A stretch of DNA of 8,277 nt from a virus (taxonomy: Duplodnaviria; Heunggongvirae; Uroviricota; Caudoviricetes). The translations under genes and the position numbers were made by a program. Shown here in pieces: positions 1-7,869 of this stretch. Position 1 is the first letter of the stretch, and each line of letters begins with the position of its first letter. The stretch lies in IMG/VR virus record IMGVR_UViG_2740892421_000006; one strand, 5' to 3'. The notes below the pieces were generated by a model, which was not told where the DNA came from, did not search any database, and was given only the letters and a program-made list of their open reading frames with translations.

Positions 1-1170
1 GCAGCTGCACGTATCGGTCGAATGACATTATTTTTAACAACCCGCTCTGTTCTGATGTTTCAAATGGCCGAAAACTTCCAGAGATCCATCGACTACCGCG
101 CCGAAAATGGCGAACCGTGGTTAAAAGACCAAAAGGTTGGAGTCATTGGCTCTGGTGAGTTCCAGGTATCACGACATATCAACGTCGCTACAGTTCAAAC
201 TCTGGCAAGTTTCCTTGAAGAACCACCACGCGATGCAACTCCAGATAAGAAGAACTACCACCTCAAACGTCGGGACTTGGTGAAACGCTTCCTTTCAAGT
301 GTGTCTCTGCTTATTCTGGAAGAGGCGCATGAGTCTTCAGGTTCTAATTTCTATGACATTGCCAGATTATGTGTGAACGCAGACTATCGTCTGGCGCTTA
401 CGGCCACGCCGTTCATGAAGGATTCTACAGAAGCCAACATGCGTCTGATGGCTGTGGCCGGGCGAATTGAAATTAAAGTCACAGAAAAGTACCTGATTGA
501 TCGAGGCATTCTGGCAAAACCATACTTCCTTTATCATAAAGTTGCCTACAAGCCGGACGAGGCCAGAATCAAGGCAGAACTTGCCAACAAACACCTCAAT
601 TTTAGAGTAGGTATGAGCACTGCCTACCAAAAGGCTTATCAGTTGGGGATCGTGTATAATTTGGGACGTAATGAGGCCATTGTTCGCGAAGCATTGCTCT
701 ATAAGCAACATTCTCTCAATTGTATGACTCTGGTTCGTCTTAAACGCCACGGGCAAATCCTGATGGAAATGATGAAAGAGTCCGGCCTTAGAGTTGACTT
801 CATTTATGGGGAATCGAACCAGTCGACAAGGCAAGCAAAGCTGAACAGTTTAGCGTCTGGTGAAATAGATGTTTTAATAGGCTCGACTATTCTGGATGTT
901 GGTGTTGATGTGCCAAGCGTTGGTGCGGTCATTCTTGCTGGTGGTGGGAAAGCAGAAGTTGAAATGAGACAGCGTGTCGGTCGTGGCTTACGAGCCAAGA
1001 AGAATCAGGCAAACGTGTGTTTTATCACTGATTTCATTGACACTAGCAACAAATACCTGTTGTCTCACTCTTATGAGCGAAAACACATCATCGACACCAC
1101 ACCTGGCTTTGCGGAAGGTGTATTGCCTATTGATGGCGCATTCGATTTTGGAATTCTGAAACGAGATTAG
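1..1170 (+). CDS. SF2 helicase (DExH-type), C-terminal ~390 codons; 5' end upstream of window
   Basis: Frame is open from nt 1 (ORF track M at 22). Motif II variant LILEEAHE at 310-333, motif III LTATP near 400, motif IV-V region (STILDVGVDVP) and motif VI QRVGRGLR at 970-993. No Walker A in window, so the N-terminal domain must lie upstream. Stop TAG 1168-1170. Confidence 0.75.
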   Translation, partial: AAARIGRMTLFLTTRSVLMFQMAENFQRSIDYRAENGEPWLKDQKVGVIGSGEFQVSRHINVATVQTLASFLEEPPRDATPDKKNYHLKRRDLVKRFLSSVSLLILEEAHESSGSNFYDIARLCVNADYRLALTATPFMKDSTEANMRLMAVAGRIEIKVTEKYLIDRGILAKPYFLYHKVAYKPDEARIKAELANKHLNFRVGMSTAYQKAYQLGIVYNLGRNEAIVREALLYKQHSLNCMTLVRLKRHGQILMEMMKESGLRVDFIYGESNQSTRQAKLNSLASGEIDVLIGSTILDVGVDVPSVGAVILAGGGKAEVEMRQRVGRGLRAKKNQANVCFITDFIDTSNKYLLSHSYERKHIIDTTPGFAEGVLPIDGAFDFGILKRD

Positions 1171-1172
1171 TT

Positions 1173-1451
1173 ATGAGCGAAAAAAAAACAACTTATTGCC
1201 AAGTGGCATTGTCTGATAAGGCCAATGAAAAACTTGGAAAATTTCAAATAAAACTCAAAGAGAAAAAAATTAAGATGTCTAAGGCTGAAGTTATCAATGC
1301 CATTCTGGAGACGATGACTATGGCTGAATTTGACAAAGTCACATCTGCCGTTGGGGTTTCCGCTAAGACGCGTGAGAAAATCATGCGCATCTATGAAAAC
1401 TCCAATATGACAAAAAAAGATTTAGAGGAAATACTGAGCAGGTTGCCGTAA
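1173..1451 (+). CDS. hypothetical small protein (92 aa), translationally coupled to helicase
   Basis: ATG 2 nt after the helicase stop; lysine-rich helical-looking protein; contains a 9-A homopolymer at 1180-1188 in codons 3-5. Function unknown. Confidence 0.55.
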   Translation: MSEKKTTYCQVALSDKANEKLGKFQIKLKEKKIKMSKAEVINAILETMTMAEFDKVTSAVGVSAKTREKIMRIYENSNMTKKDLEEILSRLP

Positions 1452-1483
1452 CATTTTATATTTACCCCCTATCTACTAATTCT

Positions 1484-1518
1484 ATGATGTGCTCACTTGT
1501 TAGAAAGGAGCACATCAT
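1484..1518 (+). promoter_or_regulatory. RBS/start-codon sequestering stem-loop
   Basis: Perfect 11-bp inverted repeat atgatgtgctc (1484-1494) / gagcacatcat (1508-1518) with a 13-nt loop; the 3' arm contains the SD (aaggag 1505-1510) and the AT of the ATG at 1517. Confidence 0.5.
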
Positions 1519-2083
1519 GAGTTGGTTAAAAGAATTATCATTTGTTGACACCACTGGCGCTAAGAAAAATCATTCTTTCTGGAAAGTCAGCGATCCTTCT
1601 GATTTTCTTGTTGGCGCTAATGCTGCTTTTGAATTGCTTAACTTTTATCAACGTTATCCTGAAATGAAACACAGTCCACTCCTGTACAGAATAACAAACG
1701 ATATGAATAGGTCTGGTTTATTATCAAGTGAGTCAGCGAAAGGCTTTTTTAGCAAAATTACGCCACATATATCATTCGATGCTGCAAACGAAATTGATTA
1801 TCTATCCACGAAACCTCAAGAACAATTATCTGTACCACCTGAGAAAAAAGAAAGACGAATTGCCAGCATTGAAAATATATCGAAAGAGCTTCGCACAACA
1901 ACGTTGAGGCTGCTGAACTTTCTTACGCTACTAAATTGGATAGATGATCAAACATTGATTCCATCAACCGATGCGTTGGATAACAGAGTCCTTAGGCTGA
2001 ACAAAAAATCGCAATTTGGTTTTGTGTTCACCAAAAAAGGTGAAGATTTAATCAAAAGAAAATATAGATTATTGAATGATTAA
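1517..2083 (+). CDS. hypothetical protein (188 aa from ATG 1517; ORF track start 1484)
   Basis: Strong SD aaggag 6 nt upstream of ATG 1517; the ORF-track start at 1484 lies inside the hairpin arm and lacks an SD. Stop TAA 2081-2083. No recognisable motifs. Confidence 0.6.
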   Translation: MSWLKELSFVDTTGAKKNHSFWKVSDPSDFLVGANAAFELLNFYQRYPEMKHSPLLYRITNDMNRSGLLSSESAKGFFSKITPHISFDAANEIDYLSTKPQEQLSVPPEKKERRIASIENISKELRTTTLRLLNFLTLLNWIDDQTLIPSTDALDNRVLRLNKKSQFGFVFTKKGEDLIKRKYRLLND

Positions 2084-2090
2084 TAGTCTA

Positions 2091-2138
2091 CATGCAGGTG
2101 TATGAGAGCACCTGCATGTGACATTCGTCACGTTTTTT
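2091..2138 (+). terminator. Rho-independent terminator
   Basis: Perfect 10-bp stem catgcaggtg (2091-2100) / cacctgcatg (2109-2118), 8-nt loop, then small hairpin tgac-attc-gtca and T-run cgttttttg to 2138; sits 8 nt after the stop of the 188-aa gene. Confidence 0.7.
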
Positions 2139-2223
2139 GAAACATATACCTCCGGCTGAAAAAAGATCTTGATTGGCTGAACGATATTTGTAGGCTTACC
2201 TATGTTTAGAACCGGAGGCATGA

Positions 2224-2772
2224 ATGGGTCACTTACCTTTTGATAAGAGATTTTTAAGTGCAAAGGAAATAAAGGACTGTGTGGATTTTTATCATAAAAA
2301 AAATAAACAGAAATCTTGCTTAGAAAACCCTAGACACCTAACTTCTTCTCAAAAAGAAGAGCACAAACTAATACAATACAGGTTAAAGACTTCACGTAAA
2401 GATCGTTATGAACACTATATATACGTGAAAGATATTGAAGGCACCAGGACAAATTGCGGAGTAGTCTTTTATCCTTTTGATATAACAAAAATGTTCGCTA
2501 TTATGGACTCCTGTGATGGCGTGGCCCCTGGAAAATTGGAGTTGCATTCAAATTTATACACTTATCCCAGTGCTCGGAAATGGATAAGAGATAGCACGTC
2601 ACCCTATGGTTTTTCTTTTCTTTTCAAAAATCATCTGGCATTAAAAAATTTTATCGAAAAATACAACAACTGCATATCATCAGGTGAATTAAGTTTCGAC
2701 AAAGTCTGTAAAAACATAAAAAGAGATGACCTCTTAAAAGATATTTACAACAGAACTCAGAAGAGCATGTAG
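2224..2772 (+). CDS. hypothetical protein (182 aa)
   Basis: SD ggagg about 6 nt upstream of ATG 2224; AT-rich; stop TAG 2770-2772. No recognisable motifs. Confidence 0.6.
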   Translation: MGHLPFDKRFLSAKEIKDCVDFYHKKNKQKSCLENPRHLTSSQKEEHKLIQYRLKTSRKDRYEHYIYVKDIEGTRTNCGVVFYPFDITKMFAIMDSCDGVAPGKLELHSNLYTYPSARKWIRDSTSPYGFSFLFKNHLALKNFIEKYNNCISSGELSFDKVCKNIKRDDLLKDIYNRTQKSM

Positions 2773-2799
2773 CCACTCACTAATCATAGTCAATCAAAT

Positions 2800-3219
2800 A
2801 TGAAAGCAAAAAACTTAATGATTCTAATGCTAACCACGTCACTAATTGGGTGTTCGTCTTCGTCTATATCTATTTCAAAGGCAAAGGATGCACCTCAAAG
2901 CAGAATATTTAAATATCAAACACTACATGAGTCTAGTCTAACAATAGTTCGAGACAAAGGGCTGGTTGGTTCTGCATGTAACGCTTCCATTTTCATCAAT
3001 GGAGAAACGGCTGCAAAGCTAGAACCTGGTGAAAAAGCAACTTTCTACCTTAACGAAGGAGAGTGGATCGTTGGGACATCAATTGAAAGTTCAGGTCTTT
3101 GCGCATTTAACCCCTCCAGGATGGAACGAGAAATAAAGCTAAAGCAGGGCGACTCGAAAACATATCGGGTTTTCACTACCTGGGATGGTACAATGGACAT
3201 ATTGCCAACCACTTTATAA
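2800..3219 (+). CDS. putative lipoprotein (139 aa), predicted outer-membrane sorted
   Basis: N-terminus MKAKNLMILMLTTSLIGCSSSS: hydrophobic h-region plus lipobox L-I-G-C; residue +2 after Cys is Ser (no Lol avoidance Asp). Stop TAA 3217-3219. Confidence 0.65.
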   Translation: MKAKNLMILMLTTSLIGCSSSSISISKAKDAPQSRIFKYQTLHESSLTIVRDKGLVGSACNASIFINGETAAKLEPGEKATFYLNEGEWIVGTSIESSGLCAFNPSRMEREIKLKQGDSKTYRVFTTWDGTMDILPTTL

Positions 3220-3748
3220 TGATATGACGACGAAAGATATCACCTACGGCATACCGGCTGAAGTATGGCCGCGAGACTACGAACATGCTGAACGCACCTT
3301 GCTCTTCTGGCGGAGAGCTAAATTTCCTGTAAGAGTCACTCTCGAAGACGGCCAAGTGTTTTGCATGTACGTTTATGGTCTCATGTCATCTCGTAACAAA
3401 GTTGACCTTTGTCCAACTCCATTTGACAAAGAAAATCGTATAAGGCTCCCACTTGAGCGCATTAGCACAATTGAATCAGGCGTAATTGATGGCATTGATT
3501 ACGATTTCAAAGGGAGACTAACAATACACCCTGACTATGTAGACAACCAGCCATCACGTCGTGACTTTTTTAAGATATGTCGCAAGGCTTATCAAAACGG
3601 CCAATCTATAAGGGTCTACATGGCAGACGGCCGCGAAATTGAGGGAACGTCAGATGGCGTTGATGCCTGCCTAGTCACACTTAAGTTGAACGACGGCAGA
3701 AAAATTCTTGTTTTCTTCGATTGGGTTGAACGAATTTTACCTTTTTGA
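3185..3748 (+). CDS. hypothetical protein with internal tandem repeat, possibly Rof/YaeO-like; start uncertain (3185 or 3224)
   Basis: Long ORF; the alternative ATG at 3224 lies 5 nt after the lipoprotein stop. Two similar segments (VRVTLEDGQ...NRIRLPLERISTIE and VTLKLNDGRKILVFFDWVERI). By memory the first resembles E. coli Rof (LTLELKDGE...SRKNVEY...RELRLDKITS); not verified. Confidence 0.55.
   Translation: MVQWTYCQPLYNDMTTKDITYGIPAEVWPRDYEHAERTLLFWRRAKFPVRVTLEDGQVFCMYVYGLMSSRNKVDLCPTPFDKENRIRLPLERISTIESGVIDGIDYDFKGRLTIHPDYVDNQPSRRDFFKICRKAYQNGQSIRVYMADGREIEGTSDGVDACLVTLKLNDGRKILVFFDWVERILPF
3692..3748. repeat. direct repeat copy 1 (3' end of the 187-aa gene)
   Basis: gacggcagaaaaattcttgttttcttcgatt... 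is ~93% identical to 4058-4114; this copy encodes the C-terminal DGRKILVFFDWVERILPF. Confidence 0.85.
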
Positions 3749-3751
3749 GTT

Positions 3752-4048
3752 ATGAAATCGATACTATTGACATCATTATTTTTAGTTTACTCAATTTCAG
3801 CCAATGCAAAGGATGATATTGCAATTATTAAGTCGCTGATGCATGACGTATGCTCAACGTCTCAGAATATTCCAGTTTGTATGTTTCAACTTTCAGCAGC
3901 AGTAAAACTAGGGATAAACATAGGTAAGACCGCTCAACTATGTGAACAGGTGGAAAATTATGAACCATGTGAATTGAACAACTCTTCATTGCTGTTCGTT
4001 GATGCGCTTTTTGACACCAATCGTAAGGCTGTAGAGTCAGTCCGATAA
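3752..4048 (+). CDS. small secreted 4-Cys protein (98 aa), paralog A
   Basis: Signal peptide MKSILLTSLFLVYSISANA with AxA-type cleavage site; mature part has Cys at 34, 43, 64, 73 (C-x8-C-x20-C-x8-C). Stop TAA 4046-4048. Confidence 0.6.
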   Translation: MKSILLTSLFLVYSISANAKDDIAIIKSLMHDVCSTSQNIPVCMFQLSAAVKLGINIGKTAQLCEQVENYEPCELNNSSLLFVDALFDTNRKAVESVR

Positions 4049-4057
4049 ATGTATGAA

Positions 4058-4114
4058 GACGGCAGAAAAATTCTTGTTTTCTTCGATTTGGTTGACCGAA
4101 TTTTACCGTTTTAG
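4058..4114. repeat. direct repeat copy 2 with 21-codon gene remnant
   Basis: Near-identical to 3692-3748; retains a remnant reading frame ATG 4049 ... TAG 4112-4114 encoding MYEDGRKILVFFDLVDRILPF, i.e. a duplicated 3' end of the 187-aa gene. Confidence 0.85.
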
Positions 4115-4123
4115 GATATTGAT

Positions 4124-4423
4124 ATGAAAACTGTAGCAGCATTCACATTCTTAACTTTCATTTTTAGCTCTTCCGCATTTCCTCAAGAAAATAGCATTGA
4201 ACGAGTGCAACGTGTCTCTACAGAGTTGTGTTCAAAGGCGGAAGACTACGATTTGTGCATGTTAGACCTAAGCATGGCTTTAGGCGCTGCATATCAAGAT
4301 GGACTGATCGTTGCGGGATGCAAGTTGGGACTTGATGAGCCTTCGAAAGACAAATGCGAAAACTCGGAGCGTTTTCAGGAATATATAATAAAAGAAATCA
4401 GGAACTATGCAAAAAAGATGTAA
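4124..4423 (+). CDS. small secreted 4-Cys protein (99 aa), paralog B
   Basis: SD agga 7 nt upstream; signal peptide MKTVAAFTFLTFIFSSSAF; Cys at 36, 45, 66, 78 (C-x8-C-x20-C-x11-C), the same spacing class as paralog A, including the shared C-x8-C-M-x2-L-S motif. Confidence 0.6.
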   Translation: MKTVAAFTFLTFIFSSSAFPQENSIERVQRVSTELCSKAEDYDLCMLDLSMALGAAYQDGLIVAGCKLGLDEPSKDKCENSERFQEYIIKEIRNYAKKM

Positions 4424-4438
4424 ATTCCTATAAGGGTA

Positions 4439-4468
4439 ATAACCGGCTAAGTCCGGTTATTATTTTAC
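4439..4468 (+). terminator. Rho-independent terminator
   Basis: 8-bp stem ataaccgg (4439-4446) / ccggttat (4453-4460), loop ctaagt, then tattttac; 16 nt after the stop of paralog B. Confidence 0.65.
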
Positions 4469-4599
4469 ATGCCATTCGTTTAACACTCATTCAATTCTCC
4501 CCCGTATAAATATATATAAGGTCAAAAGCCGGAATTTATTATTTATTTAGGGAACACCTTCGACGATCTAACTTTTATTTCTAGGACTTTCATCCCTGC

Positions 4600-4647
4600 A
4601 AAAAAACTTAAAAAAACACTTGCAATCTTTTTTCGCGTATCGATAAT
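4600..4647 (+). promoter_or_regulatory. sigma70-like promoter with A-tract UP element
   Basis: A-rich tract aaaaaaacttaaaaaaacac (4600-4619), -35 ttgcaa (4620-4625), 16-bp spacer, -10 gataat (4642-4647); about 60 nt upstream of ATG 4707. Confidence 0.45.
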
Positions 4648-4706
4648 TGGACTCATCGAAAGCGAAATCGCTAACGACAATTAAATTTATACTAAGGATT
4701 GAAATC

Positions 4707-5357
4707 ATGGCTAACATTATCATTTCTAAAAAATCCATCATTGAAGCTGCTGCCATTGTATCCGACGAGCTGCGCGAAAAAGCAGATCTGGCAACTCAAA
4801 CATATAACGAACATTATAAAAATGGTACGCACACAAAAGCAGACAGAGCTAACATGCTTGCAGCGTCTACCAAACTAGCATACTTCACCAACAACGTTTT
4901 AAACGCTGTTAATGATGAGAAATTAGCTGGTGTCTTTTACTACGCGATCAAAGCAAGTAAACAAGCGCCAGAAGTATTTTTCCGTGATGCAATGACTAAT
5001 AGTTATTCACTGGAAAAACTGGTCTATCTGGTTAAATCAATTAAAGCTGGTAAATGCGTTTATTCCATCGCTGATATGTCAGGATCTCGTGTATTTGCTT
5101 TAATCGATATGATTAACGACGAGATCGACACGTTCACCAATGGCGCTGTTTTCGATTTAATGAATGAAGCTAAAAAAGCGTGCGAAATTAAATTGGACGC
5201 TGGCTATACTCAAGCCAACCAGTTGATCAATCTTTGCGAACGTCTTGGACTTGTTGAGAAAGTCAAAGGAATGGGAAGCGCAAAAGCTGGTACGCAGCAA
5301 TATCGCTTTATTAAAAATGATTTCTATAACTATCTGGCTGATGCTTTCAAAGCGTAA
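4707..5357 (+). CDS. hypothetical protein (216 aa)
   Basis: SD aagga (4694-4698) 8 nt before ATG 4707 (MANIIISKK...); the ORF-track start at 4647 lies inside the predicted promoter and has no SD. Stop TAA 5355-5357. No signal peptide and no recognisable motifs. Confidence 0.7.
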   Translation: MANIIISKKSIIEAAAIVSDELREKADLATQTYNEHYKNGTHTKADRANMLAASTKLAYFTNNVLNAVNDEKLAGVFYYAIKASKQAPEVFFRDAMTNSYSLEKLVYLVKSIKAGKCVYSIADMSGSRVFALIDMINDEIDTFTNGAVFDLMNEAKKACEIKLDAGYTQANQLINLCERLGLVEKVKGMGSAKAGTQQYRFIKNDFYNYLADAFKA

Positions 5358-5370
5358 TTAATGGAATCTT

Positions 5371-5391
5371 GCGCCCACTATGGGCGCTTTT
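5371..5391 (+). terminator. intercistronic hairpin (partial terminator/attenuator)
   Basis: gcgccca-cta-tgggcgc followed by only tttt, then immediately the SD aaggag (5392-5397) of the next gene; the same stem sequence as the terminator at 5641-5665. Confidence 0.5.
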
Positions 5392-5404
5392 AAGGAGCTT
5401 AATC

Positions 5405-5635
5405 ATGTTTATTCTTATCGCTGGCGTTAACGTGCGCAATGAATATTTTGTTAATCGCATCGCTGGGATCGCTGGTTACGCTGGGCGCGCAGTCGAGTTT
5501 ATCGATGAAACGACGCGCAAAATTGACTTATTGAGCGACCAGGAGCGAAAAAAAGCAGACGTGAATGACGCTGATATATTTTTAATGTTGAAAGCGTTTG
5601 TAGAAATGGGATTCAAAATTAGTTTACACAAATAA
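5405..5635 (+). CDS. hypothetical small protein (76 aa)
   Basis: SD aaggag 7 nt upstream of ATG 5405 (MFILIAGVNVR...); the ORF-track start at 5369 falls within the upstream hairpin. Stop TAA 5633-5635. Confidence 0.55.
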   Translation: MFILIAGVNVRNEYFVNRIAGIAGYAGRAVEFIDETTRKIDLLSDQERKKADVNDADIFLMLKAFVEMGFKISLHK

Positions 5636-5640
5636 AATCG

Positions 5641-5665
5641 AGCGCCCACTATGGGCGCTTTTTTC
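5641..5665 (+). terminator. Rho-independent terminator
   Basis: Stem agcgccca (5641-5648) / tgggcgct (5652-5659), 3-nt loop, then a T6 run; 6 nt after the stop of the 76-aa gene. Confidence 0.75.
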
Positions 5666-5685
5666 GTTTCCAATACTCCCACCAT

Positions 5686-5712
5686 AACGCGCCATCATTG
5701 GCGCGTTTTTTA
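5686..5712 (+). terminator. second (tandem) Rho-independent terminator
   Basis: 8-bp GC-rich stem aacgcgcc (5686-5693) / ggcgcgtt (5700-5707), loop atcatt, then ttttttatt. Confidence 0.7.
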
Positions 5713-5980
5713 TTGTCTTTAACTCGCTCCAACAACATAAAAATAAGCACCAAAATAACGCCATAGACGCACTTTTATATCCTTACCAGTACATACCCAT
5801 TACTTAACACATTAACGCGCTTAAAACGCGTTATATTGCGCTATAGAGTATGGTTAATCATTGGCTTTTAGTCTTGCTATGTGATCCGCGTTTATTTGTC
5901 GGCGCGGATCGGTTCTTTGTGTTGTTTTGTATCCGCTCGCGTATTATGTGCGCGTGATTTTTCACATAATCACACCACTT

Positions 5981-5996
5981 AATCACATATGTGATT
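5981..5996. promoter_or_regulatory. perfect 16-bp palindrome AATCACATATGTGATT (candidate operator)
   Basis: Exact dyad symmetry; sits in a cluster of TCACA/TGTGA pentamers (5954-5996) within a noncoding region. Confidence 0.35.
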
Positions 5997-6125
5997 ACGC
6001 TACGAAAGAAATCTGGATGTCTCAGGCGACGAAAGTCATCATAATTTTCCCCGCTCACCTGTCCGACAACCGCTGGTTGGATTCCACCAGCTTCCCGATG
6101 TTTTTTCTACATAAAGGCGAATGCA

Positions 6126-6238
6126 GCCGTTTCCCGAAAAAATCCTGGCCGTTTCCCGTCGGCTCATGAATACGTTCCTCGCCGTTTCTGAAAATTTCCC
6201 TGAGGCAGCTGGTGTCTATAGAGAAAGGGCCGTTTCTG
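6126..6238. repeat. four direct repeats of GCCGTTTC(C/T)(C/T)G
   Basis: Copies at 6126-6136, 6148-6158, 6181-6190 and 6229-6238, with spacings of 22, 33 and 48 bp, in an otherwise noncoding stretch. Confidence 0.6.
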
Positions 6239-6249
6239 GCCCTCTTCTC
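6221..6249 (-). terminator. putative terminator hairpin of the minus-strand gene block
   Basis: Inverted repeat agggcc (6226-6231) / ggccct (6238-6243), extendable with gagaa/ttctc; lies 3 nt downstream (minus sense) of the 160-aa gene stop; the U-tract is only moderate. Confidence 0.4.
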
Positions 6250-6251
6250 AG

Positions 6252-6734
6252 TTACACGCCATCAAGGATGTGGATGCGGTTGCTTGCGTATACATTCAGC
6301 ATAAAGTTAGCGCAAAACAGTTTCCATGTATCAACGCCAGCGGTATACGTAATGTTTTTGCATTTAATTGCATTGTTGGCGATCCGCATCCCCTGCGATA
6401 CTGCTTCATCGTCGGAAAATTTGAACGACGATTGAGTTTTAATCCAGACAGAAATCTGCGTAGCGAACTCAATCAGCTTGGACTGGCAGAATCGCCCGGA
6501 GCGCACCGGAAAGACGAACGTTCCGAATCCAGAATTTACCACATACGCTTTCTCAAATACCCGCGAGTAACGACGATTGCCAATGATGTCGCGTGCAATA
6601 ATGCATTTTTCTTGTGCTGACAGTTCTACCGTCTCATTGTCGCGCCATGCACCAAGTACTCGTTTTTCAATGTCAGAGAACGTTACAGCGATATTGCCAT
6701 GTGCGGGTGCGTTTACAGTAGCGATAAAATTCAT
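6252..6734 (-). CDS. hypothetical protein (160 aa)
   Basis: Minus-strand ORF with SD aagga 7 nt upstream of ATG (6732-6734); stop TAA 6252-6254. No recognisable motifs. Confidence 0.55.
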   Translation of the reverse strand: MNFIATVNAPAHGNIAVTFSDIEKRVLGAWRDNETVELSAQEKCIIARDIIGNRRYSRVFEKAYVVNSGFGTFVFPVRSGRFCQSKLIEFATQISVWIKTQSSFKFSDDEAVSQGMRIANNAIKCKNITYTAGVDTWKLFCANFMLNVYASNRIHILDGV

Positions 6735-6855
6735 GATTAATTCCTTATCGTAAATAACAAATTGTTTCTTGTTGTTGTTAATTATCGTTGTACGAATAAG
6801 GCGTCAAAGTGGAAAGTTGCGGTAGCCGGACGGGAACAGGTGGGTTTGTCGGTTG

Positions 6856-6932
6856 CCTGGAGGTAAGAGGTTGGTGTTTTTAGCCTGCGGGAAACAGGAT
6901 GGTCATTTAAGGCCACCAATGCTGATGGCCTT
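6856..6932. repeat. cassette-flanking repeat, left copy (hairpin-forming)
   Basis: ctggaggtaaga ... ggtcatttaaggccaccaatgctgatggcctt; the core matches 7967-8001 with 3 substitutions; lies immediately 3' (minus sense) of the 310-aa gene stop (TGA 6937-6939). Confidence 0.8.
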
Positions 6933-6936
6933 GTTT

Positions 6937-7869
6937 TCAACTGGAATAAGAATAATCTGTATTGATGAGTAAAGGCGCATCATCCACTAATCCTGACAGA
7001 AACCAGCGAGCAGTCCCGTAAAGTTCAAGGGCGTCAAGATAGCCTTCATGCAGTGCACCAACCCCAAACACATCATTATCAGCCATAGCTACCGCATCTA
7101 CGGCCAGATACTCTATGAGTTCTTCCATGCTTTTTATATTTATATCGTCTAAAATCTCCAGTTTGTTCTCAATCTCATTGAAAGGGATATCCGGCATCGA
7201 ATGCACTATGATTTTTGGCACATCATTCTCATTATTTACCTCCACAATAACAATTCCATACTCTGTAAAAAGAGAACTAAAGAATCTATTAAACTCTAAA
7301 TTAACAAAAGATGCCGAACCATTTAAACGCTCAACATATGGGGAACGAAAAGCTGAATGTAAATTATTTTTTCTACTTTCCTTGCCATATTCTATAATCA
7401 ACTCTTTATTTTTGATCTTCTCGAGTATTCCACCTAGCTCCTCTACAATTAAAGCGCCAGTGTTTTCTCTTTCTTTTGATACTATAGTTGAAAGACTGAT
7501 CAAGGCTTCTGTTATACTGTTATTAGAAACGATCAGATGAAATAGCTCCAGCATAGCCAATCGACCACTATCAGTGAACGTAACAAAGTTTATTGCATCT
7601 ATTTCATTTTTAATCGCAAGAAACTCACATTTATTTTTGATGTTTTCCCGAATTGACATCTCCACACGCTGTCTTATTCTCAACACCTGCTTAAAGTAAG
7701 TATTTTCAAAACATTCGACAGAAAATGTCTTCTTACCATCATTCACAATAGCCAATCTGTATTCACATTCAAGACCATTAAGTTCAAGGCAATCACAGTC
7801 ATATTGGGACCCATCTTTAACTGAAAACAATTCACTAATGTCAATTTGTCCCAAAAATACTGGTTTCAT
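6937..7869 (-). CDS. hypothetical protein (310 aa), AT-rich cassette gene
   Basis: Minus-strand ORF with SD agga upstream of ATG (7867-7869); appears markedly more AT-rich than flanking DNA; bracketed by the two repeat copies. No recognisable catalytic motifs. Confidence 0.65.
   Translation of the reverse strand: MKPVFLGQIDISELFSVKDGSQYDCDCLELNGLECEYRLAIVNDGKKTFSVECFENTYFKQVLRIRQRVEMSIRENIKNKCEFLAIKNEIDAINFVTFTDSGRLAMLELFHLIVSNNSITEALISLSTIVSKERENTGALIVEELGGILEKIKNKELIIEYGKESRKNNLHSAFRSPYVERLNGSASFVNLEFNRFFSSLFTEYGIVIVEVNNENDVPKIIVHSMPDIPFNEIENKLEILDDINIKSMEELIEYLAVDAVAMADNDVFGVGALHEGYLDALELYGTARWFLSGLVDDAPLLINTDYSYSS

Follow-up and report, generated by a model that had tools for sequence, protein, structure and literature searches.

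The first 1,451 bases of an 8,277-nucleotide stretch of a Caudoviricetes virus (IMG/VR record IMGVR_UViG_2740892421_000006; this whole stretch is called the window below) are the end of a two-gene unit in the conserved core of an SSU5-type phage-plasmid. The unit consists of a superfamily 2 (SF2) helicase, present in part, and a small gene that encodes a basic protein of 92 amino acids. The reading favoured on balance by this analysis is that of a core, UvsW/XPB-like helicase with the sequence EEAH at motif II (Walker B), coupled to a CopG-like DNA-binding partner, with no switching role for the run of nine adenines (A9) near the start of the small gene. The locus belongs to an ordinary kind, and what is modestly new is the fixed glutamate in Walker B and the ribbon-helix-helix (RHH) partner.

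Judged by its sequence matches, the window comes from an Escherichia coli phage-plasmid of the SSU5/pHCM2/pMT1 type. Megablast matched it to non-mobilizable ‘plasmids’ of E. coli of about 105–116 kb, with the top match (NZ_CP075739) 98.8% identical across positions 1–6932, and a total of 749 plasmid records from Klebsiella, Escherichia, Enterobacter, Yersinia, and Salmonella match window sequence. The phages Cyrano, CMS-2020a, and PhiR41_1 are about 95% identical to the window and SSU5 is a remoter match. The SSU5/pHCM2/pMT1 supergroup of phage-plasmids has been described previously (PMC7969092). The G+C content of the window is 40%, and no Rfam families or tRNAs were found within it. Phage-plasmids of this type are frequent in clinical Enterobacteriaceae and bear resistance genes, and their core replication and recombination genes are uncharacterised.

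The helicase open reading frame occupies positions 1–1170 of the plus strand, where frame 1 is open from the first base, continues for 389 codons, and terminates at a TAG at 1168–1170. The helicase of annotated relatives is 519 amino acids long, and thus the window holds codons 131–519 with the stop and lacks the first 130 codons, including Walker A. Motif II is EEAH (319–330), set in LLILEEAHE with the conserved glutamate that follows at 331–333, motif III is TATP (400–411), and motif VI, with the arginine finger, is QRVGRGLR (970–993). Across 88 orthologous loci, with helicases of 70–100% identity, the sequences LLILEEAH, ALTATPFM, and QRVGRGLR occur in every locus and the Walker A sequence GGGKS is likewise invariant. 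The initial annotation, which had recognized a partial SF2 helicase of a type found in phage genomes, with EEAH as motif II and about 60 residues after motif VI, holds in each of these respects, the exact count after motif VI being 58. A tail of this length is normal for the family, as T4 UvsW aligns with the helicase through it.

Several independent searches place the helicase in the same part of SF2. Pfam returned ResIII (E = 1.2e-14), DEAD, and Helicase_C, and PHROGs returned phrog_16, ‘DNA helicase’. By sequence, its closest relatives with solved structures are Sulfolobus XPBII (1.7e-12), Archaeoglobus Rad25/XPB (1.4e-8), and T4 UvsW (3.9e-8), and a pairwise BLASTP alignment with T4 UvsW covers residues 75–502 at 22% identity (E = 2e-16), aligns motif VI with QTIGRVLR, and extends through the C-terminal tail. 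Two RecA-like domains with motifs I, Ia, II, III, and VI are present, as in UvsW-type (A18/UvsW) proteins (the structure model was made for the 389-residue fragment), and the canonical DExH form of Walker B for this type, DECH in T4 UvsW, is replaced by EEAH. Likeness to the XPB models is restricted to the helicase core: the score against NCBIfam repair_heli_XPB is 49.8 bits (cut-off 610) and that against the TIGR rad25 model is 26.7 bits (cut-off 328.7). The N-terminal UvsW_N domain (PF21241) is matched by 11 of the 29 aligned clade members, with a best E-value of 2.3e-6, and several of the intein-bearing members discussed below give weak matches to it. The two-RecA fold, the full set of motifs, and the end-to-end similarity to UvsW identify the protein, as far as sequence comparison allows, as a UvsW/XPB-like SF2 double-stranded-DNA translocase. 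The ratio of nonsynonymous to synonymous substitution (dN/dS) is 0.054 for the helicase and 0.07–0.08 for the small gene. These low values, combined with the PHROG matches (phrog_16 and, for the small gene, phrog_1466), indicate that both are real, conserved genes.

The unusual motif II is not a lesion of this one genome, but the mark of a large helicase clade with glutamate fixed in place of the Walker B aspartate. When 1.84 billion cluster representatives were searched exhaustively with HMMER, 239 proteins were returned at E ≤ 1e-30, and the 47 nearest 50%-identity cluster representatives (at least 37% identity) all have EE[AV]HE, with DEAH, DECH, or DEVH in place of EEAH among the remoter representatives. 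A search with the clade profile recovered EEAHE in all 118 of the 118 best hits, and the clade amounts to more than 1,900 90%-identity clusters at E ≤ 1e-30. Clade members of 813–916 amino acids owe their length to an intein with Hint and LAGLIDADG domains inserted directly after Walker A; the intein-bearing proteins are P0076, P0077, P0079, P0083, P0094, P0102, P0106, P0111, and P0119. The clade defined by EEAH is apparently undescribed, as literature searches, confined to a searchable library, found no paper on EEAH or EExH helicases, and searches that paired SSU5 with helicase or UvsW found nothing relevant.

In SF2 enzymes the first residue of Walker B is almost universally aspartate. This, together with the lack of EEAH or EExH helicases in the searchable literature, would fit a degenerate helicase of weakened catalysis, acting as a DNA-binding scaffold and not as a motor. 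Such an interpretation is very unlikely, as GGGKS, the catalytic second glutamate, TATP, and QRxGRGxR are all intact and invariant, the aspartate-to-glutamate change is a conservative one that has been fixed, without drift, throughout a very large clade, and inteins have been retained beside the P-loop. Inteins persist in indispensable sites of indispensable genes, which argues that the EEAH helicases are active. Activity is likewise suggested by the invariance of the motif and the strong purifying selection, and the longer glutamate side chain would take on the coordination of Mg2+ and water. The fixed substitution also lends itself to asking, from a natural example, how strict the need for aspartate at this position is in SF2 motors. 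By analogy with UvsW and the phage T5 helicase D10, the enzyme would remodel branched DNA during replication or recombination, through fork regression, branch migration, or the processing of R-loops and D-loops, and may possibly also remove branches ahead of packaging.

The sequence upstream of the window sets the helicase among core phage genes. The initial annotation had expected partner genes to lie upstream, an expectation that was not borne out: in annotated relatives a rightward unit opens with the helicase, the first gene on its own strand, and what precedes it is encoded on the opposite strand. Across an intergenic gap of 83 bp lies a leftward array composed, in order, of two genes with ParB_N domains, an ATP-binding cassette (ABC)-type ATPase, three unnamed genes, the terminase, the portal, and the major capsid gene. 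The same layout occurs in Pseudomonas phage hairong (Nickievirus, 112.8 kb), where the portal, terminase, ABC, and two ParB-like genes are directed leftward and the helicase rightward. A distant set of 80 EEAH-helicase loci was drawn from IMG/VR, many of them on contigs of 100–119 kb and with helicases only 41–50% identical to one another. All 41 of the distant loci with 6 kb of upstream flank have both ParB_N and ABC ATPase homologues upstream on the opposite strand, the next gene is present in 40, and in 27 the terminase is already reached within that distance. The conservation of the ParB_N/ABC-ATPase layout marks the helicase as part of the syntenic core shared by a large group of phages, and not as cargo. 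A block of two ParB_N genes, the ABC-type ATPase, and an unnamed gene for 297 amino acids was observed between the helicase and the terminase in loci L001 (8631–11528, minus strand) and L274 and among L194–L273, and this block stands next to packaging genes in the SSU5-like elements, in Nickievirus, and in the 41 flanked distant loci.

The intergenic region between the helicase and the ParB genes (11529–11610 of locus L001, upstream of the window) is strongly conserved and contains a TGnTACAAT element, a TATAAT, and a palindrome. The palindrome, TAAGTA-N(0–6)-TACTTA, is kept across lineages with a spacer of 0, 2, 4, or 6 nucleotides depending on the lineage, partly through the copy number of CTTA. 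Locus L001 has two copies of it within 31 kb, against a chance expectation of 0, the second one in another intergenic region (20017–20030).

This setting also bears on the suggestion in the initial annotation that the helicase might belong to a defence system. In the form considered here, the helicase and small protein would be anti-phage or restriction-type cargo of the plasmid, akin to type III Res, a Dnd/Pbe-type restriction helicase, or something similar. In its favour are the matches to Pfam ResIII cited above, to NCBIfam dnd_restrict_1 (E = 3.7e-16), and to PADLOC PbeA (E = 4e-23), but these are limited to the generic helicase core. The dnd_restrict_1 score is 59 bits against a cut-off of 600, and the PbeA match spans only profile positions 253–635 of 672. 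There is no nuclease or methyltransferase domain, the PbeBCD or Mod partner genes are absent, and PADLOC returned no hits for the small protein or the neighbours. The helicase stands beside packaging genes as a syntenic core gene in lytic-type phages as well (Nickievirus and the 41 of 41 loci), and the inteins of its relatives are typical of essential replication or recombination genes. As a candidate defence helicase of the PbeA, Dnd, or type III Res kind it was rejected, for there is neither a full-length match nor a set of partner genes, and the neighbours are two ParB_N genes, an ABC ATPase, and the terminase. A defence role is accordingly rated as highly improbable.

The helicase stop codon, a spacer of two nucleotides, and the start codon of the small gene form the junction TAG-TT-ATG at 1168–1175, where translation is probably coupled. 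The small gene runs from the ATG at 1173 to the TAA at 1449–1451 on the plus strand, as the initial annotation had it, and no internal promoter or terminator was detected by a scan between the two genes. The stop + 2 nucleotides + ATG arrangement is found in 79 of the 84 listed loci, and five loci of 82% identity (L005, L073, L074, L076, and L077) have a longer gap of about 9–12 nucleotides. In the most divergent SSU5-like loci (L083 and L085–L087, at about 7570–7640) the genes are about 45 nucleotides apart, with a G+C-rich hairpin without a T-run between them, and the small gene has an N-terminal extension of 20–25 residues; tight coupling is therefore not universal.

The pairing itself is far more constant than the spacing, and the helicase-plus-small-gene arrangement noted in the initial annotation proved to be a conserved pair. 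The small gene follows the helicase in all 88 SSU5-like loci. Among the 80 distant loci, a family of 84–128 amino acids detected with an iterated profile lies on the same strand, −11 to +800 nucleotides past the helicase stop, in 36, and in a 37th (L272) the homologue of the small protein is 2.8 kb downstream. The next gene in the window (1517–2083, plus strand; phrog_13473, 188 amino acids) is present in 25 of the 81 SSU5-like loci that have the small gene, and in distant lineages the genes after the small-protein homologue belong to many clusters unrelated to one another and frequently lie on the opposite strand. The sole stable neighbour of the small gene is, in these sequence comparisons, the helicase, which makes it less likely that the small protein is part of a toxin-antitoxin pair or regulates any one particular gene downstream. 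The helicase–RHH pair stands where the conserved core gives way to the variable accessory region, which occupies the remainder of the window. Between the window and locus L022, synonymous divergence is 0.125 in the helicase and 0.57 in the small gene, and this jump within one pair of elements suggests a recombination breakpoint at or near the junction of the two genes.

The identity of the small protein is less direct. It has no Pfam match and belongs to phrog_1466 (E = 1.2e-45). It is lysine-rich (16 lysines), with a bias to the codon AAA. Residues ~6–48 (positions 1188–1316) form a probable CopG-like RHH domain, with a pattern of an alternating hydrophobic strand (TYCQVAL), helix A, and then MSKAEVINAILE, and the C-terminal helical tail ends in a conserved M-T-x-x-D-L-x-x-I-L motif. 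An AlphaFold2 model (predicted local distance difference test score 84.6) has residues 1–14 extended and helices at 15–30, 37–47, 50–76, and 81–89. Aligned directly with hhalign, the small-protein family (A2) and CopG fall in the same register, though the match is not significant (P = 0.0098). The RHH assignment is indirect and goes through the homologues encoded behind the helicase in distant loci: the small-protein family aligns with this sister family (A6) at a probability of 90.5% (E = 1.4e-6) over 81 columns, which take in the C-terminal L-S/T-x-E-x-L motif, and the A6 profile matches the entire RHH domain of CopG (1b01/2cpg; E = 1.9e-4) as well as Reg576 (0.0025). A HMMER search of the distant helicase loci with the small-protein profile gave no hits, and the link comes from profile–profile comparison only. 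The small protein is most likely a divergent CopG-like RHH protein with a helical tail, and the RHH domain would be expected to dimerise and to read the major groove of DNA with its β-strand.

Four observations weigh against the favoured picture of a UvsW-like helicase with an RHH partner. The full-length SSU5-like helicase has no UvsW_N match at E ≤ 0.01, and the Pfam threshold was not reached. The AlphaFold2 model of the small protein formed no N-terminal strand, which is expected when a monomer is modelled and proves nothing. The first eight seeds of family A6 were chosen by eye, with later members recruited by HMMER at E < 1e-14. Finally, in roughly half of the distant helicase loci the small open reading frames downstream are of other types, coiled-coil or membrane, and no RHH gene was detected there. 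Among those of loci L194–L273 without an RHH gene directly after the helicase, some have a coiled-coil protein of 60–70 amino acids (LVDPVHFFD) in its place, and others have a single-pass membrane protein of 63–76 amino acids (MNHALILNL...), with the RHH gene in second position.

It should also be considered that the small RHH protein may have nothing to do with the helicase, and may instead be an antitoxin paired with the next gene (1517–2083) or a regulator of the variable right-hand region. The 188-amino-acid gene is, however, found downstream in only 25 of the 81 loci, the genes that follow in distant lineages are unrelated and often on the other strand, and the helicase is the only conserved neighbour, usually within a few nucleotides. 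Neither PADLOC nor Pfam searches returned toxin matches. A type II RHH antitoxin was rejected as an identity for the protein, as no adjacent toxin gene is conserved and the downstream gene varies, and independence from the helicase is on this evidence unlikely.

The proposal to which this analysis commits is that the small protein would be a sequence-specific DNA-binding partner made along with the helicase. Its most likely task, though one given a little less than an even chance, would be to autoregulate the unit by binding the candidate palindrome TAAGTA-N-TACTTA in the upstream divergent promoter region, outside the window. The main alternative, appreciably less likely, is that the small protein would tether or target the helicase to DNA, by analogy with TraY and TraM for TraI and with UvsW.1 for UvsW. 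A more ambitious interpretation, which is distinctly unlikely, has the helicase and RHH partner form a dedicated module for sequence-targeted DNA remodelling. An RHH dimer would bind a specific site, such as the palindrome that lies between the helicase gene and the packaging/ParB operon, and there either load the translocase or hold it back, alongside the neighbouring ParB_N and ABC-ATPase proteins, in replication initiation, concatemer processing, or maintenance of the plasmid state. Should this be the case, the remodelling module would be common to a large and mostly uncultivated group of phages and phage-plasmids of about 100–120 kb, and the aspartate-to-glutamate change in Walker B would tune the ATPase for a regulated role. 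Apart from these interpretations, the fixed-glutamate clade, the divergence from the ParB_N/ParB_N/ABC-ATPase array, and the frequent CopG-like follower could together provide a defined two-gene unit for experiments.

The A9 tract at 1180–1188 is present as initially annotated and covers codons 3–5 and the first base of codon 6 of the small gene (GAA AAA AAA ACA). The initial annotation noted it as a potential slippage site that might switch the accessory protein on or off. As a contingency switch, it would lose or gain an A by slipped-strand events during replication, so that the reading frame changed at codons 3–6 and the protein was silenced or restored in part of the population. Homopolymers of nine nucleotides can slip in E. 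coli, and this one is uninterrupted and lies at the very start of the coding sequence. The comparative data point elsewhere. An uninterrupted A9 was found only in the window, in one contig fetched twice (L027/L167), and in a metagenome contig of 108,006 bp (L277), the window and L027 being its sole carriers among the 84 loci that include the small gene. The other E. coli-type loci read AAAAGAAAA (GAA AAG AAA ACA), which also encodes E-K-K, and other lineages read GAGAAACGC (GAG AAA CGC) and similar sequences.

Tract length was compared in 41 E. coli-type loci, comprising 27 viral contigs and 14 metagenome contigs, with the window counted separately. A scan with a variable-gap pattern found a 9-nucleotide segment in all 27 viral contigs and in all 14 true metagenome loci, of which 13 read AAAAGAAAA and one has A9 (L277). 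There were no length variants among the 41 loci, the nine metagenome matches of other lengths being unrelated chance hits, and no frameshifted copies of the small gene were seen among the 84 loci. Under a first-order Markov model of the window, 0.8 A/T runs of at least nine are expected and at least one occurs in 55% of simulated windows. A switch is thus opposed by the derived and rare state of A9 (2 of 84 loci and 1 of 14 true metagenome loci), by the lack of any tract in remoter orthologues, by the constant length and intact frame, by the ease with which such a run arises by chance in comparable windows, and by the strong purifying selection on the small gene, and it is rated as extremely unlikely. 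A phase-variable locus was rejected, as the length does not vary and the tract is not maintained, being G-interrupted in nearly all close relatives. From these sequences, A9 is a recent and incidental synonymous change (AAG>AAA) in a lysine-rich, AAA-biased gene. The initial annotation had itself set a conserved core module and an invariant tract length against its proposal, and these are essentially what the upstream context and the 41 loci revealed.

Several other genes in the window deserve mention. The gene at 3224–3748 (plus strand) encodes, in full length, an FljA-like ‘repressor of phase-1 flagellin’ (Pfam PF03614, E = 2.5e-80), and judging by this similarity the phage-plasmid might affect flagellin expression in its host. 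The adjacent genes at 3752–4048 and 4124–4423 (plus strand) encode proteins of about 98 amino acids with signal-peptide-like N-termini and conserved cysteines, which weakly cross-match each other's PHROG families (9536, 27673, and 21025) and by sequence look like diverged paralogues. A 310-amino-acid open reading frame at 6937–7869 (minus strand) has no matches in Pfam, PHROG, or PADLOC. Similarity to the closest plasmids stops at about 6932, indicating that this region is a strain-specific insertion or replacement in the variable region.

Among characterized systems, T4 UvsW with its small downstream partner UvsW.1 (Kerr et al.) is one of the close parallels. Both are SF2 helicases of similar size (519 amino acids here and 503 for UvsW) with a short tail after motif VI, and each is followed at once by a small gene read in the same direction. 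An N-terminal domain of the UvsW_N type occurs in relatives of the helicase within its clade. The two differ in that identity is 22%, motif II is EEAH here and DECH in UvsW, and the element here is a siphovirus-type phage-plasmid and not a T4-like phage. Homology of the small protein with UvsW.1 was rejected at an hhalign probability of 0.2%; the small protein is basic and RHH-like, unlike the acidic, trihelical UvsW.1. As the small protein has no similarity to UvsW.1, the likeness to the UvsW/UvsW.1 pair is positional and possibly functional, but not homologous. XPB/Rad25 of archaea and eukaryotes, including Sulfolobus XPBII, supplies the best sequence matches among solved structures, but the XPB damage-recognition domain and the Bax1 partner were not identified here and motif II differs. 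The branch-migration helicase D10 of phage T5 has likewise been described as closest to XPB and UvsW (PMC5180179).

For the small protein, the comparison is with RHH proteins of plasmids. CopG of pMV158 and Reg576, which are plasmid RHH transcriptional repressors, are matched by its sister family, and the segment ALSDKANEKL...MSKAEVINAILE of the 92-amino-acid protein falls in register with TLSESVLENLEK...LSKSAMISVALE of CopG. Unlike CopG, the small protein has a helix A that is about five residues longer and a 45-residue C-terminal helical extension, and its gene follows a helicase gene instead of preceding a rep gene. TraM of F-type plasmids has the same overall build, with an N-terminal RHH domain and a C-terminal helical oligomerisation domain. 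Sequence similarity to TraM and TraY is absent, structural similarity is at noise level, and the relaxase and conjugation context is lacking here, but as RHH accessory proteins that bind the origin of transfer (oriT) and assist the relaxase-helicase TraI, TraM and TraY offer a precedent for an RHH protein that serves a helicase.

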